In this document: positions 46,451 through 52,711 of the stretch, piece by piece
Numbering within the stretch: position 1 is the first letter of the stretch
Layout of the letters: each line of letters starts with the position of its first letter
IMG/VR virus record: IMGVR_UViG_3300027917_000018
Location: 1-64,000 of that record
DNA length: 64,000 bases
Reading direction: 5' to 3' (one strand)
Source: a virus
Taxonomy: Duplodnaviria; Caudoviricetes
Made by a program: the position numbers and the translations under genes
Notes under the pieces: generated by a model
Database searches by the model: none
What the model was told of the DNA's origin: nothing
The model's input: the letters and a program-made list of their open reading frames with translations, nothing else

Positions 46451-47056
46451 ATGGCAAGGCTACGTTACAAAAACACGTTCGCGTCGCAGAATTCGCGACT
46501 CGACCTCCAGCGTGTTGACCTTTTCAAGATCACCCTGGAGCTGCCCACCGCGCTCGGCCTTCCGTGGGACGAGCACGTTGAATTTGCCGTCGAGAAGTTC
46601 CCATTCCCTGACCGGAACAAGGAACTCATCGCCGTCAAGTACATGCAGCAAACCAACCAGATGCTTGGTGCCGACTCGAACAGCGGGCCGGTCGACATCC
46701 CGGTGCGGTATGCCTTCGCCCAGCGCACTGCCGAGGCGCTGGAGAAGTGGTTCTGGCTCATTGCCAACCCGCTCACGGGCGGCGTCGGTCTGACCAGCGA
46801 GGTCAAGTGTATGGGCTTCATGCGCTGGCTGATCCCCAACATGCGCAAGCAGATCGCCGACATCCGCAGCCAGGCTATCCCTGGTGAGGACACGATGCGG
46901 GACGGAGCCACCTACGTCCTGGAAGGCTGCCTGATCCGTGGCCTGAAGTTCATCGACGCGGACATGACGACCAGCAACTACGTCAACCTGCAATTCGGCC
47001 TGTCAGTTGACCGTTGGTATCCCGAAAACATTGAGGCACTCCAGCAAACCTATTGA
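46451..47056 (+). CDS. gp19: tail tube protein, gp19-like
   Basis: Follows the sheath gene; LFKITL...FPFP...LEKWFW...YVLEGCLI..L...D...LSVDRW. Confidence 0.8.
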   Translation: MARLRYKNTFASQNSRLDLQRVDLFKITLELPTALGLPWDEHVEFAVEKFPFPDRNKELIAVKYMQQTNQMLGADSNSGPVDIPVRYAFAQRTAEALEKWFWLIANPLTGGVGLTSEVKCMGFMRWLIPNMRKQIADIRSQAIPGEDTMRDGATYVLEGCLIRGLKFIDADMTTSNYVNLQFGLSVDRWYPENIEALQQTY

Positions 47057-47565: not shown

Positions 47566-47919
47566 ATGGTAATTCACTGCACTGACGGCCAGGTGGTAGG
47601 CGAGACTGAAAGCACACTTTTCAACGTGCTCCAGCAAGGCCCGGTCTCCATGATGGTCATTATCAAGAATTCGGGCGTGAACACCATGAACTACCGGTTC
47701 CAGGAGTACAACGGAACCGCGTGGGTCGACCTCGGGGCCTCGGGGACGGACTATTACAACACGCTGAGTGCCAGCCAGGTCCGCTCCTTCAAGGTCACGT
47801 CCAATTACCCGCAGGTGCAGATGGTTGGCAATGCGTCCGGTGGTGCGTTCATCGACTTCTCAGTGACCCGCTACTATAACCGGGCCGCAGGCGGGAGCAT
47901 TCCTATCCTCGCGCTGTAG
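47566..47919 (+). CDS. small beta-rich putative virion protein
   Basis: Resembles 39258..39707. Confidence 0.55.
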   Translation: MVIHCTDGQVVGETESTLFNVLQQGPVSMMVIIKNSGVNTMNYRFQEYNGTAWVDLGASGTDYYNTLSASQVRSFKVTSNYPQVQMVGNASGGAFIDFSVTRYYNRAAGGSIPILAL

Positions 47920-48802
47920 GCACGTCCTCCTCGTCGTCCTCGACCATCCGGCTGCGGCTGTGTTCCCGCAGCCGGTAGCTTCGGTAGATCGGCATGTAAG
48001 TGCCGTACAAGTCCTGCCAGTCCTCCAGCAGTTTCGGATCGCCAAGTTGGAGCGGTCTCGGCTCCGGCACATCTACCTCCATGTGGAGCAAGGTTCGATC
48101 GAGGCAGTCCGTGAATTGAAGATGGAGGGAATGAGGCAGTTGCGCCAGGATGGCTTCAAAGGCCGCCTCAAAGCTCATGTCCTCGGTGACCTTCTCGAAG
48201 AGCTTCTTCACTTTGACCGGCCCGTAGCCGTAGAGACCGGAGATGGCATCGGTCTTGTCGCCGAGAATGGCCAGAGCGATGGCCAGCTGGCTGGGATGCT
48301 TAATATGCCACTTGTTATTGATGGCCCGGCTGGTTAGCAGTGACTTTTGGTTGAGGCAGAAAAACTGGACGCGACCGCCCTGGAGCTGTTGCAAGTCTTT
48401 GTCGCCGGACGCGACAAAGATGATGTCAGCCTTACTTTTGTAAACGGCGCTGCACACGACATCGTCGCCTTCGCAGCGGTTGGCCACCGCGTTGGCTGTA
48501 TCGAGGACAGCTTCCAGCATACCCATGACGATTTCGCGGGTCTCGTGATAATTGCTTGGCTTGGGGTCCCTGCCCTTGTCCGAAATGCCCTGGCCGCCTT
48601 CGCCGTCCCAGGCAAACAGCGTTCTGTCGATCCGCTCACCCAGCCGGTCGCTTAAGGGATCGATCAAGCTCAGCGCCGTGGCCATGCAGGCTTTCATCGC
48701 GTCGGCGGGCCTGGCCATCTTGCTCCCGGAGCGCTGGGCGTACGCCACGGCGTAGTAGGCCCTGGCGTAGAGGCTGTTGCCATCCACGATGAGGTCGGTC
48801 AT
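47903..48802 (-). CDS. 5'-3' exonuclease (PolI N-terminal/T4 RNase H/FEN family)
   Basis: LIVDGNSL...EGDDV...SGDKDLQQL...ILGDKTDAISGLYGYGPVK (H3TH motif). Confidence 0.92.
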   Translation of the reverse strand: MTDLIVDGNSLYARAYYAVAYAQRSGSKMARPADAMKACMATALSLIDPLSDRLGERIDRTLFAWDGEGGQGISDKGRDPKPSNYHETREIVMGMLEAVLDTANAVANRCEGDDVVCSAVYKSKADIIFVASGDKDLQQLQGGRVQFFCLNQKSLLTSRAINNKWHIKHPSQLAIALAILGDKTDAISGLYGYGPVKVKKLFEKVTEDMSFEAAFEAILAQLPHSLHLQFTDCLDRTLLHMEVDVPEPRPLQLGDPKLLEDWQDLYGTYMPIYRSYRLREHSRSRMVEDDEEDVPTARG

Positions 48803-48999
48803 AGTTCGTCTTCCACTTCAGGAGGAAGAACCGGGCTCCCCTCGTCCTGTTTGAGCCGCTCAACGGACATCTCCGTGAAGAGGTCCAGGACCCAGTCGGG
48901 AGCTTTGGAAAGGTCGCAAGTAAAGCCGCGTCGCAGCCAGCAAAGGTCAAAGACTCTTTGCCACCTGTTTTGTAAACGTTCCGACGCGGCCCGAACGAA
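48799..48999 (-). CDS. startless +1-frame ORF, probable frameshift extension of the gp26-like gene
   Basis: 66 codons (FVRAASERLQNRWQRVFDLCW...EVEDEL*) bounded upstream by in-frame TGA/TAG; no early start codon; its stop overlaps the exonuclease ATG (ATGA). Confidence 0.6.
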   Translation of the reverse strand, partial: FVRAASERLQNRWQRVFDLCWLRRGFTCDLSKAPDWVLDLFTEMSVERLKQDEGSPVLPPEVEDEL

Positions 49000-49762
49000 A
49001 AAATTCGGTCCCTATATTCAGCGGCCACCGGTAGACTTGCTTGCAATTCACGCACTGCTGCTGGAGGTCCAGCTCAAGATGGGGCGTGATGTCGTTTTCT
49101 TGGTCCTCCAGGAACTTGGCATCCTTGGGCGGCAGCGCTGTGTACCACGCTACCAATTCCTGCATGTTGTCGGGCCGCTCGCCTCCCACGGTCTCGACCA
49201 TCGTCACGATCCGGGCGACCGAATCCGGGCAGAGTTTCTTGGACTCAGGGGTTCGGCCAAGGATGTTGATTTCGTCCCCGATCAGGAGCGGACGGATTGT
49301 TAGCGTGTCGCCGACGACCGGAAGCGTGATGCTTTCGTGCCCCGGATAGCCGGGAGGCTTCTTGCCCATCGGCACCAGTTCGTCGGGCACGATGATCTTG
49401 TCTTCCTCCTCGTGATTGCAGTAGGGGCAGGAGGCCACGTAGAAGATTTCGCAGTCGGTTTGGATGGACCGGGAAACCATCAGCACGGTCAGCACGTCCC
49501 CTGAGACGAACCGTTCCAGCGGGCAGCCATTGAGGTTGCAGACCTTCTCCAGGAGCCTGAAGAGGATCGCCTCGTTCTCCATCCCGGCCTCGCGGCGCGC
49601 CTCTTGCAGCCAGGTGTCGATTTGATAATCCCAGGGGTAAACCGTGATTTCTCCGTTGGGGAACGCCTCCGGGCAGCTGTAGCCGCCGCTCAGAAGCGCG
49701 ATCTTTTTAGCGAACTTTTCCCGGCGCGGGGTCAAGTCCTTCAGGTTCGTCTTGATAGCCAT
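48947..49762 (-). CDS. baseplate hub assembly/tail chaperone, T4 gp26-like
   Basis: D+LTVLM.SR.I...Y...CPYC...I.L......TIRPL..GDE...CVNC...FF. Confidence 0.7.
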   Translation of the reverse strand: MAIKTNLKDLTPRREKFAKKIALLSGGYSCPEAFPNGEITVYPWDYQIDTWLQEARREAGMENEAILFRLLEKVCNLNGCPLERFVSGDVLTVLMVSRSIQTDCEIFYVASCPYCNHEEEDKIIVPDELVPMGKKPPGYPGHESITLPVVGDTLTIRPLLIGDEINILGRTPESKKLCPDSVARIVTMVETVGGERPDNMQELVAWYTALPPKDAKFLEDQENDITPHLELDLQQQCVNCKQVYRWPLNIGTEFFRSGRVGTFTKQVAKSL

Positions 49763-49775
49763 ACAGGGAAGAACG

Positions 49776-50774
49776 TTATTCCACGAAGACCTTCTGCGAG
49801 ATGAGCTGGGCGGACTGCGGCTGGATCACGGTTGGTGGCACCTGCGGCGGACTGGTTGGCGTCCCTGGCGTGGCGCTGGTGTGAGTATGCGTGCCCAGCC
49901 ACGCCAGAAGTGAGGCAACCCAGGTCGTGAATTGGATGCCCTTGACGGCGGGCTCGACTGCCGATTCGCTGCCGATCCGTAAAAGCGGGGCCGTGGCGAC
50001 GAAGCTGCTCTGCGCCGTCAAATTGATCTGGTTGGCGGTGACCTCAAAATTGTTTACGAAAGTCGCGCTCAAACCCGAGTCGCCGCTGGCGATCACGTCG
50101 CCCACGAAGTCCAGGTTCGTGTTGCCTGCGATCGTCATATCCAGATCGCCGCTCATGGTCTCCACCCGGATGCTGTTGGCCTGGATGTTCAGCTCCAAGC
50201 CGATTTGCATGTAGAAGTCCTCCAGGATATTCAACAGGCCACCTTGGGTTTCGTCGTTCAGCTCCAAAAACTGTCCGCTTTGCGTGATAAGCTGGAGGTA
50301 GCCGTCGGAGCCAGCACTTGTGGCGTCCAGAGCAAAAAGCCGGTAACCCTTGGAGGTTGTCAGGACGATGCTGCCGGAGGTCCATTCGACCGTGTGGCCG
50401 TAACGGGTCAGAGCGGAGCGCTTGGGCTTGCCTTGGCTCGGACCGACGGCTTCGTACTGGTGAAGCGGAAAATCCTCGTTGGCGGTCGTCGTTTGCATGA
50501 ACCAGGCCCACACCGGCTTTTCCGGTTCGCCGTCGAGGAACTGTACGGCGACCTGGTCACCTGGCTCCGGTAGCCAATCCATGCCGCCGCTTTGCTGAGA
50601 CTGCCCGGCGGGCAGGCCCAAGGGGATCGCCCACGGCAAGTCATCAAGCGGGACCTGGCCGACTGCGCTGCCAAGAATGCCGTAAACGTGCGGTACGCGC
50701 ACTTTAACGCGGCCCAGCTTCTCCGGGTCGTTGACCGCTTCGACCTTTCCAACGTAAATGCCGTTGAGATTCAT
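49776..50774 (-). CDS. baseplate central spike (gp5/gpV-like OB fold), no lysozyme domain
   Basis: YVGKVEAVNDPEKLGRVKVRVP...LPWA...LPEPGDQVAVQFLDG.PEKP; beta-helical middle; C-terminal HTH(T) apex; start at ATG 50774. Confidence 0.88.
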   Translation of the reverse strand: MNLNGIYVGKVEAVNDPEKLGRVKVRVPHVYGILGSAVGQVPLDDLPWAIPLGLPAGQSQQSGGMDWLPEPGDQVAVQFLDGEPEKPVWAWFMQTTTANEDFPLHQYEAVGPSQGKPKRSALTRYGHTVEWTSGSIVLTTSKGYRLFALDATSAGSDGYLQLITQSGQFLELNDETQGGLLNILEDFYMQIGLELNIQANSIRVETMSGDLDMTIAGNTNLDFVGDVIASGDSGLSATFVNNFEVTANQINLTAQSSFVATAPLLRIGSESAVEPAVKGIQFTTWVASLLAWLGTHTHTSATPGTPTSPPQVPPTVIQPQSAQLISQKVFVE

Positions 50775-50816
50775 CGTTCTCAGTGTAACTAGCTTGGGAG
50801 CGCCGATACTTAAGGT

Positions 50817-51590
50817 ATGCCGTTCATCCGGGACACCTTGAACCAATGGGGCCGCCGTGGCGGGGAAAATCCCCAGCGAAACGACCTTTGGCAGGTCGAT
50901 CTTAGCTCCGTGGTCGTGGGCATCAATCTAGCCTTCGAGACTGAGTTTCGCATCGTGCCGAAATGGTACCCGGCATCCATTAGAATTCCTGAGCCAAAGG
51001 TCAAGGCGGAGGCCACGCGCCGGGACAGCCGGTCCTACATGATGCCGAGCTGGGACGAGCCCTTTGACCCGATCATGCTCAATTTCCTGGTCGACGACGG
51101 CGGCTATCGTACTAAGCAGAACACGGCTGTCACGCCCTACAGCGAGATTTACGCAATTCTGGATGCCTGGCGGCGCATGGTGCGCTCTGGTCGTGGCTCG
51201 GTGGGTGCGGAAAGTGAGCCGCTCCGGCTCAACGAGAACTATCAGCAGCCTTTCCTGTTTCCGATTTACCTTTGGACGGCACGGGGCGTGCGCCCGGTGA
51301 ACGCTCTGGCCGCCGCGTACAGCCGGGCTGCGGCTACGTCGCCGCTGGGCGATCCGGCCACCATGTTTCCGGGCTCGACCTCCGCCGCCATCGCCAACAA
51401 GTACGCGACGCTTTCGACCGATAAATTCAGCGCGTCCATGCAGCGTGCGATGGAGACCTCGGGCATTTACATCCTGGAAAGCTGCTGGCTAGGAGGTTTC
51501 AAGCTCGCCGAGCTGAGTTACCGGGGCAGTGATGTCCTTACCTGCGAGGCCACCATTCACACCGCCAACGTCTTGCAACAAATCCCGTGA
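50817..51590 (+). CDS. tail tube paralog / tube initiator (gp19/gp54-like)
   Basis: RNDLWQVDL...I.IP...FDPI.L.F.VD...LDAW...ILESCW...L.ELSY...TIH. Confidence 0.65.
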   Translation: MPFIRDTLNQWGRRGGENPQRNDLWQVDLSSVVVGINLAFETEFRIVPKWYPASIRIPEPKVKAEATRRDSRSYMMPSWDEPFDPIMLNFLVDDGGYRTKQNTAVTPYSEIYAILDAWRRMVRSGRGSVGAESEPLRLNENYQQPFLFPIYLWTARGVRPVNALAAAYSRAAATSPLGDPATMFPGSTSAAIANKYATLSTDKFSASMQRAMETSGIYILESCWLGGFKLAELSYRGSDVLTCEATIHTANVLQQIP

Positions 51591-52711
51591 GCGACCAAGC
51601 AACAGTCCTGCGCCAGATGAGGCCGCCCTACGCGGGCAACGCCAAAATCGTTTACGGCTTTCGCCGCTCCGTTCCTAAAAACTTCGGCTATACGCTGGAG
51701 ATTCCGGTGGGTGGCAACGTCATCGCCCCGGCTGACGGCTCCGTCGAGCTTATTCAGCCGAGTTCGGTCGGATGGCGCTATACCAGTCCTGCGTTAAAGG
51801 GAGGCGCGATCCTGATTCGCATTAACCACGGCTACGGGGTCAAAACCTACATTCACGGCGTTGCCAATCCCAGCGTCGGCTACGGCCAGGTGACGCGGGG
51901 ACAGGTGCTCGGAACCTCGGCTTATGGCGAGGTCTTTTTTGCCGTCGAAGTCTTTGGTTCCATGACCAACCCGTCGCGGGTCAACAGTTTCTTCGCGCCG
52001 CGCAGCGGCAATCTTTACGCGGGTCAGTCCGCGACCATTCGGCAGGCTCCGAACGTGGGCACCTGGTTTGTCTCGGCGCTATCCCAAGTCTGGTACAACG
52101 GCCTTCGTTATTTTACCACGCCCCAACCGTTTTTCGTAAACGTGGATTTCAACGGCGGAGGTTCCAAAGCAGGGCTAGCGGCGGTGGGCTACGCGGAAAC
52201 CGATTACTGGAACGTGCTGGTGCCCTTGGCGGGGCCTTTTGGCTACGCCTCCTACACCACGGACTGCGGCCCGACAGCCTATACCTGGACGGCGGAGCCC
52301 AGCGTCCCGCTGCTGGATTACCGAGGCAAGCCCTCGAAGGTTAGCCTGCGGCGCGTTATCGAGGACAATTTCTATGGCTCCAGCGCTGAATTCGACCCGA
52401 TGCTTAGCACCTACTACGGTGGCTGGAGCGGCAGCACGCCTCGCCAGCAGTGGTACGACATTCGGGGCTTAGCGCCGGGGTCGTACGACATCTACGTTTA
52501 CGCCAATCAGAAAAGTGGCTCGTACACTTCGATCATTTCGATGGCAGTGGCTGGCAGCCTTCCCACGACAAAAGTGCCGCTCAGCACGACTCAGGCTGCT
52601 TGGATTGAGGATTACAATTACGTCAAGTTCACCAAGACCCTGGGTGTCGGCGACTACTTGACCTTTGAGGTCTTAGGCTACATAGGCGGCCTGCAAATCA
52701 CGCGTTCTTAA
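51587..52711 (+). CDS. degenerate M23-peptidase-like domain plus C-terminal beta-sandwich
   Basis: PVGGNVIAPADGSV...IRINHGYGVKTYIHG..V..GQV..GQV+G follows the M23 fold, but the HxxxD motif is missing. Confidence 0.6.
   Translation: MSDQATVLRQMRPPYAGNAKIVYGFRRSVPKNFGYTLEIPVGGNVIAPADGSVELIQPSSVGWRYTSPALKGGAILIRINHGYGVKTYIHGVANPSVGYGQVTRGQVLGTSAYGEVFFAVEVFGSMTNPSRVNSFFAPRSGNLYAGQSATIRQAPNVGTWFVSALSQVWYNGLRYFTTPQPFFVNVDFNGGGSKAGLAAVGYAETDYWNVLVPLAGPFGYASYTTDCGPTAYTWTAEPSVPLLDYRGKPSKVSLRRVIEDNFYGSSAEFDPMLSTYYGGWSGSTPRQQWYDIRGLAPGSYDIYVYANQKSGSYTSIISMAVAGSLPTTKVPLSTTQAAWIEDYNYVKFTKTLGVGDYLTFEVLGYIGGLQITRS

Follow-up and report, generated by a model that had tools for sequence, protein, structure and literature searches.

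A conserved candidate +1 recoding site at the end of gp26-like baseplate hub assembly genes in metagenomic phages

Frameshifting in tail assembly chaperone genes is textbook knowledge for lambda-like and P2/Mu-like phages. In such chaperones the open reading frame (ORF) for the extension lacks its own start codon and is conserved among highly divergent phages (PMC5009743). At the UUU_CGU site of influenza PA-X, the P-site tRNA-Phe slips onto UUC (Firth et al. 2012, PMC3498833), which its anticodon 3'-AAG-5' binds better than UUU (PMC3498833), and bacterial UUU_Ynn sites are especially prone to +1 shifts without a stop codon and are used for YopN-TyeA and FseA (PMC5009743). Here we describe a putative recoding site that resembles each of these systems in part and lies in positions 1 to 64,000 of the IMG/VR virus record IMGVR_UViG_3300027917_000018 (hereafter the window, meaning the whole stretch of 64,000 nucleotides that was analysed), which belongs to a phage genome of 202,975 bp and 59.8% GC from marine sediment metagenomes. 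The site stands at the end of a minus-strand gene (48947..49762) for a gp26-like baseplate hub assembly protein; Leiman et al. (2010, PMC3004832) list T4 gp26 among the hub assembly chaperones.

As in lambda gpG/gpGT, and also in P2 E/E+E' and Mu gpG/GT, the extension ORF in the window is conserved and start-less. Lambda G/GT differs in using a -1 heptamer where the window would use a +1 shift, and in lying between the tube and tape-measure genes, whereas the window gene lies between gp5-like and exonuclease genes and encodes a PF12322 protein with two CxxC pairs. With PA-X the window shares the identical UUU_CGU core and the potential for re-pairing of the P-site tRNA-Phe to UUC (PMC3498833), and with the YopN-TyeA and FseA sites it shares the +1-prone UUU_Ynn (PMC5009743). 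The genes, hosts and ribosomes of PA-X are unrelated and the likeness is one of mechanism only; the upstream codon is UUU in the window versus UCC in PA-X, and CGU is not known to be rare in the host of the window phage. A sequence-only reading of the window had proposed a programmed +1 frameshift at this site and likened it to PA-X, a comparison that is apt given the slip described by Firth et al. (2012, PMC3498833).

The 0-frame product has 271 amino acids and ends at TGA 48949..48947, 16 codons past the recoding site GAA TTT TTT CGT (48995..49006, minus strand; T6 at 49003..48998, C at 48997, G at 48996), around which frame 0 reads ...G-T-E-F-F-R-S-G-R.... In the +1 frame, TGA ATA TAG at 49012..49020 (TGA 49020..49018, TAG 49014..49012) closes the frame three codons before the T run, and no upstream start can therefore serve the window's +1 ORF. 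From 49011 the frame is open down to TGA 48801..48799, with its first ATG, GTG or TTG at about codon 45. The +1 extension (48799..48996, minus) comprises 65 codons, from GTT 48996..48994 to CTA 48804..48802, followed by that TGA, and the computed trans-frame product is 255 + 65 = 320 amino acids with the junction T-E-F-F-V-R-A-A. This stop and the ATG (48802..48800) of the 5'-3' exonuclease gene downstream share bases as ATGA. The sequence-only reading had given the site, the frame and all coordinates correctly (GAA TTT TTT CGT, the stop at 48947, the upstream TGA and TAG, the ATGA overlap), had noted the lack of ATG, GTG or TTG early in the +1 frame, and had put the products at 271 and ~320 amino acids, in agreement with the predicted 271 and 320.

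That reading had also named an assembly indel in the T6 run as an error that would overturn it. Three contig assemblies (from at most two samples) are identical to the window with no gaps, a 151-nt contig from a separate mangrove study covers the T run with two substitutions and 0 gaps, and the T6 run is present in all independently assembled relatives (dozens of assemblies). We therefore exclude an indel error in the run.

The T run and the +1 frame in related loci

An open +1 frame is not significant by itself, given the GC content of ~60% and a third frame that is likewise open here; its significance derives from conservation in 48 distinct related loci. These were drawn from 24 IMG/VR loci, 49 JGI metagenome loci and several contigs found by exact protein look-up, and the 48 that were scored, including the window, remained after removal of duplicates and truncated contigs (33-61% protein identity). 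We found that the eight bases TTTTTTCG are identical in 48/48 loci, and that the +1 ORF is likewise kept in all of them, which answers the check on relatives that the sequence-only reading had proposed. Elsewhere in the same genes Phe codons are 43% TTT and 57% TTC, and third-codon positions flanking the site vary freely, indicating that the shift-prone site is conserved beyond coding need. Naive odds of this invariance are ~1e-40 if lineages are taken as independent, a figure that overstates the case; synonymous sites are saturated at this divergence. In T4 gp26 the FF motif is written TTC TTT despite an AT-rich genome, so the motif alone does not force a T6 run.

A +1 ORF of 54-68 codons comes after the run in each of the 45 complete loci. 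Stops within the first 20 codons occur in none of the 45 in the +1 frame, compared to 38/45 in frame 0 and 26/45 in frame -1; a lambda-type -1 slip on an X_XXY_YYZ heptamer does not match this pattern, since the conserved ORF is in +1 and the -1 frame is interrupted in those 26 loci. Mean pairwise amino-acid identity is 0.37 in the +1 frame versus 0.22 and 0.19 in the other frames, and nucleotide identity by +1 codon position is 0.53/0.51/0.33, a protein-coding pattern. The peptide alignment is conserved from its first residues (F-F-V-x-A-A...R-W...F-D-L-A-W...G...V-P-D...W-R-N-E), with R13, F18, L20, G26, P35 and D36 of the extension invariant or nearly so. Frame 0 ends directly past the site (F-F-R-stop) in 16/48 loci, and among 103 homologous proteins F-F-R is present in 100 and is the very end of 27.

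An overlapping ORF conserved at the protein level could be an independent small gene of about 60-70 amino acids that overlaps the end of the gp26-like gene and is translated from its own or a non-canonical start or by re-initiation. In many assemblies gene callers list it separately, the coupling of its stop to the following gene is that of an ordinary cistron, and L001 and L002, the closest relatives, read TGG ATG TGG where the window has TGA ATA TAG, placing an ATG 4 codons before the run. However, 29/48 loci, the window among them, have no ATG, GTG or TTG between the upstream +1 stop and the site, that is, before the conserved part; in many loci in-frame stops lie 2-4 codons upstream, the frame opening just before the run, and the starts that do occur vary in position between loci. 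The FF codons mark the exact point from which the peptide is conserved, and an independent gene would leave the invariance of T6CG at synonymous positions unexplained. We consider such a gene very unlikely. The sequence-only reading had held that homologs with an independent start would speak against it: in 29/48 loci a possible start is lacking, as it expected, whereas L001 and L002 do have an ATG.

Searching 1.84 billion representative proteins with a profile built from the peptide gave 88 matches, and none of them was an in-frame fusion of the peptide to gp26. The matches are ORF calls of 31-91 amino acids, often from an internal Met, save for two long repeat-like proteins and P0148. In the latter (261 amino acids), no stop closes the +1 ORF, which continues in frame into the 5'-3' exonuclease (...QRQD-MTDAIFDANSLYARAWY...); this may be a real fusion or an artefact of assembly or gene calling. 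As a separate observation, the gp26-like gene of L048:1501-2268 (Ga0315284_10023341) is interrupted by an in-frame TGA immediately behind its second CxxC pair (C-S-E-C-stop-F-E-F) while keeping the T6CG site and the downstream frame, and could represent an error, a pseudogene or read-through.

Slip mechanism and variants of the run

Comparison across these loci makes a conserved recoding event at the end of the gp26-family gene very probable, and we put the probability that its mechanism is a +1 ribosomal slip at UUU_UUU_C at roughly 0.7. Most ribosomes would read GAA TTT TTT CGT in frame to yield the 271-amino-acid protein, whose last ~14 residues are predicted to be disordered. A fraction would slip +1 with tRNA-Phe on UUU, the anticodon 3'-AAG-5' re-pairing to UUC. 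On U6C the P-site and A-site tRNA-Phe could both re-pair perfectly (UUU_UUU_C to U_UUU_UUC), which may explain why the whole run is kept. Translation would then proceed from GUU through the 65 +1 codons to give 320 amino acids with the junction ...T-E-F-F-V-R-A-A..., and this longer form would carry the same folded body with a C-terminal helical hairpin.

Variant lineages bear directly on the mechanism. In the P0051 lineage, represented by 15 contigs from several samples, the site reads AAG GAG TTT CTT CAT CGA and just TTT_C is left. Frame 0 here gives K-E-F-L-H-R, losing the invariant FF, and the +1 frame encodes the conserved peptide, while a +1 slip on TTT_C would bring back K-E-F-F, the invariant E-F-F being regained in the trans-frame product alone. 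Another locus, L077, reads TTT TTT CTT. Three T's are too few for -2 re-pairing or polymerase slippage, which leaves UUU_C as the element shared by all, and the variants favour a +1 slip of P-site tRNA-Phe over either of these.

A -2 ribosomal slip on U6 would have the tRNA-Phe of the second UUU move back two bases onto UUU, after which UUC is read; the product would have the same extension with one extra Phe (...EFFFVRAA...) and the junction peptide ...TEFFFVRAASER. The -2 frame is the same as the +1 frame, the whole T6 run, beyond TTT_C, is invariant in 48/48 loci, T6 followed by A in Listeria phage LIS04 re-pairs perfectly at -2 and not at +1, and phage Mu gpGT is a known case of a -2 shift (PMC3498833). 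However, P0051 (GAG TTT CTT), Streptococcus phage GXN1 and LR756508 have three T's and would be left with mismatched codons, yet keep the +1 ORF, and tRNA-Phe gains a G-C pair on UUC (PMC3498833). We therefore regard the -2 slip as improbable.

The extension could also be brought into frame during transcription if the polymerase dropped one U, or added two, on the A6 template run. The homopolymer is strictly conserved, and loss of a single U would lead to a protein identical to that of a +1 slip. The genome contains no T or A run longer than six; T6 runs number 13 and 15 on the two strands of the 203-kb genome, about as expected. Bacterial slippage runs usually comprise 7-9 or more A/T, and six U's are short for efficient slippage. 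Bacteria and viruses do use transcriptional slippage (PMC5009743), but a long homopolymer is not found here (T6, or T3 in the variants), and the lineages with T3 keep the ORF. We judge this explanation quite improbable.

Several points weigh against a +1 ribosomal slip at UUU_UUU_C. We found no conserved stimulator: RNAalifold on the 60 nt downstream gave 0 consensus pairs, the mean downstream folding z was just -1.1, and an upstream Shine-Dalgarno-like motif occurs in 11/48 loci versus a background of 11.5%. CGU is not rare in E. coli (PMC3498833 table), which may not be the host. A P-site slip needs UUU_C alone, so invariance of six T's calls for the extra assumption of a tandem slip or an E-site effect, and this invariance fits a -2 slip or transcriptional slippage equally well. 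In LIS04 the site is UUU_UUU_A, at which +1 re-pairing is imperfect, and in L001 and L002 the +1-frame ATG makes independent initiation possible. The 0-frame tail RSGRxG...LAxNL (48947-48997, minus) is also conserved in the closest sub-clade, which may reflect the overlapping +1 ORF. Finally, all support for a frameshift is comparative. We infer that the shift occurs, along with its direction (+1 versus -2), its level (ribosomal versus transcriptional), its efficiency and the function of the extension; the programmed +1 frameshift of the sequence-only reading is supported to that extent. The A-site codon of the 48 loci is CGT in 40, CGA in six, CGC in two and never CGG, a bias that cannot be assigned because the third base of this codon is the second base of the +1 Val codon.

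A further in-frame TTT TTT CTG occurs beyond the window, at genome position 125106 (minus strand) in a long ORF, with 247 codons upstream of it and a stop 10 codons later. Another frame opens three codons before that run and continues for 193 codons, and may be an ordinary overlapping next gene.

The extension peptide and the downstream gene

When folded alone with AlphaFold 2 (AF2; 48 sequences), the +1 peptide was modelled as a helix at residues 2-22, a loop and a helix at residues 36-54, with a predicted local distance difference test score (pLDDT) of 78. The AF2 model of the 0-frame protein (pLDDT 87, predicted template-modelling score 0.83) is folded to about residue 252, and its tail at residues 258-271 has pLDDT <50 and is predicted to be disordered. 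The FF(R) residues are the last that the PF12322 profile covers. The profile and the modelled fold both end at the site, so a slip there would fall at the domain boundary, a disordered tail giving way to a small structured module. If the case resembles lambda gpG/gpGT, the short and long forms would be produced at a constant ratio, with the extension serving the chaperone as a second surface for binding in hub or tail assembly.

Searches of the 70-amino-acid +1 peptide against Pfam and PHROGs returned nothing meaningful, the fused sequence did not lengthen the phrog_150 match of the window protein, and Foldseek of the peptide model against the PDB gave no match at E<=0.001, a two-helix hairpin being uninformative in such a search. 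The suggestion in the sequence-only reading that the long product is a gp26-gp51-like fusion is not supported, since hhalign of the extension against T4 gp51 gave a probability of 0.2% and hence no detectable likeness. No similarity was found between the window extension and those of Bacillus phage SP-15 and Xanthomonas phage XacN1.

The gene downstream of the +1 ORF encodes a 299-amino-acid 5'-3' exonuclease (FEN/RNase H-like; 47903..48802, minus; PF02739 E 5e-12, phrog_107). The ORF downstream of the +1 ORF was readable in 38 loci; in about 35 of these it is an exonuclease gene, and in 21 of the 38 its start overlaps with the stop of the +1 ORF. Shifted ribosomes would end on the exonuclease start (AUGA) and may couple its translation. 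The slip could accordingly be real and mainly regulatory, bringing ribosomes to AUGA and setting the exonuclease level, with the peptide mattering little. These gene-order counts fit this, as does P0148, whose +1 ORF is in frame into the exonuclease. However, the peptide is under protein-level constraint, with invariant residues and a predicted helical hairpin, and in SP-15-type relatives a tape-measure-like gene follows the +1 ORF instead. We assign only a slight probability to a mainly regulatory role, which is compatible with +1 frameshifting and does not exclude it. Separately, the order of gp26-like gene, +1 ORF and 5'-3' exonuclease gene is curious in setting a baseplate chaperone beside a replication or repair nuclease.

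Protein family, distant relatives and gene neighbourhood

The window gene is a member of the gp26 (PF12322) family by sequence comparison, in keeping with the gp26-like assignment of the sequence-only reading. The window protein itself has no Pfam match at E<=1 and matches phrog_150 'baseplate hub' with E 2e-4. We identified 103 homologs with 36-61% identity, all metagenomic, many of which carry PF12322 T4_baseplate; homologs with 47-50% identity scored 27-35 bits for PF12322 when re-scanned, versus a curated cut-off of 24.5. The family profile aligned to T4 gp26 over its last 56 columns (hhalign probability 81%, E 1.2e-5), and the C-terminal motif CxxC...E-F-F, invariant in the family alignment, is common to T4 gp26 (...C-P-E-C-G...K-E-F-F-E-L-L). 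Foldseek of the 0-frame model against BFVD gave matches with E 9e-14 to 1e-6 and template-modelling scores of 0.5-0.75, named baseplate hub subunit or 'baseplate hub assembly protein, T4-like'.

Among solved structures, sequence search gave no match for the gp26-like protein, and Foldseek against the PDB returned the HK97 structure 2ob9 at a non-significant probability of 0.47 and nothing significant otherwise. VIA-align of the 0-frame model against 48,161 PDB chains ranked YqbN (3klu) first, with Z 7.5, 100 aligned residues and a root-mean-square deviation of 4.1, and the HK97 tail assembly chaperone 2ob9 second, with Z 5.4 and 99 of 104 residues aligned, followed by matches of 4.9 or lower; scores below Z 8 may reflect just a common arrangement, and those of 3klu and 2ob9 fall below the tool's safe level. 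We take YqbN to be an XkdN-type tail assembly chaperone of the B. subtilis skin prophage. The likeness of the modelled fold to tail assembly chaperones is a lead and not proof.

No close cultured relative was found, the sheath protein being <30% identical to any deposited phage. With the window protein as query, tblastn against 50,697 phage records gave no match at E<=1e-5 and just four distant matches at E<=5. The +1 peptide had no match among deposited phage records, and a prokaryote genome scan revealed no relative of the window protein.

The distant deposited relatives found at E<=5 all show this arrangement. Listeria phage LIS04 has, in order, a tube gene, a 'baseplate hub' gene, a 231-nt unannotated gap and a tape-measure gene; its hub protein ends G-E-F-F-S-T-R-F (GAG TTT TTT AGT), and a 78-codon +1 ORF fills the gap. 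SP-15 reads GAA TTT TTT CAC before a 74-codon +1 ORF, inside which a 39-amino-acid 'hypothetical protein', SP15_046, is annotated (L085:2254-2373). In SP-15-type relatives the +1 ORF precedes a tape-measure-like gene, and in SP-15, as in LIS04, the gp26-like gene lies between tube and tape-measure(-like) genes. GXN1 has TTC TTT CGT and a 96-codon +1 ORF, whose product is similar to the SP-15 extension (E 3e-6), and LR756508 (AAC TTT CTA) has just TTT_C before its +1 ORF. XacN1 resembles the window in gene family, in the use of the FF motif as slippery run and in an extension ORF without a start, but the frame is opposite: GCT TTT TTT ATT forms a classical U_UUU_UUU heptamer followed by an 81-codon -1 ORF, inside which ORF316 is annotated (L086:2589-2771). 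SP15_046 and ORF316 are probably truncated calls of frameshift products.

T4 gp26 belongs to the same PF12322 family and shares its C-terminal motif with the window protein. In contrast to the window, its FF is encoded by TTC TTT GAG, the protein ends three residues later (...EFFELL) and the gene runs into gene 25, with neither slip site nor extension. A second T4 product, gp26', is annotated as arising by internal in-frame initiation.

Across all assemblies examined, the extension is either omitted or represented by a truncated 'hypothetical' ORF inside it, SP15_046 and XacN1 ORF316 included, and annotation pipelines therefore appear to miss a real product. The literature searched contained no paper on a frameshift in gp26 or a baseplate hub gene; frameshifted tail assembly chaperones are a known kind, whereas their occurrence in the gp26 family and the +1 direction were not reported there. 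We tentatively propose, as a possibility short of even odds, that gp26 (PF12322) is an unrecognised G/GT-type chaperone of T4-like and jumbo contractile-tail phages, in which recoding at the FF motif is ancient and has switched direction between clades, the shift being +1 in the window's clade and SP-15-type phages (UUU_UUU_C or UUU_C) and -1 in XacN1-type phages (U_UUU_UUU), and that T4 has lost it. On that proposal the window clade would be the first large, deeply conserved, stimulator-free +1 frameshifting family in bacterial viruses, with the PA-X core UUU_CGU. A conserved +1 site of UUU_UUU_CGN without detectable stimulator would be a clean system in bacteria in which to study the slippage of tRNA-Phe, whether in the P site or in tandem. 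The shift, if real, would also provide a testable idea of the role of gp26, as a chaperone of two forms, with SP-15 (Bacillus) and XacN1 (Xanthomonas) as cultured relatives.

Directly upstream of the gp26-like gene, and in the same direction, lies a gene for a gp5-like OB-fold hub/spike protein (49776..50846, minus; PF04717 E 2.8e-11, phrog_430 E 3e-17). Sheath and tube-like genes are also near the gp26-like gene in the window, and in several clade members a tube-like gene stands directly upstream of it. The 201-amino-acid ORF after the sheath gene (46451-47056) is tube-like by position and has no Pfam or PHROG match. A 374-amino-acid ORF at 51587-52711 shows a weak M23 peptidase match below cut-off, and a 166-amino-acid ORF at 47053-47553 matches phrog_5417 (function unknown) and, more weakly, a tail fiber family.

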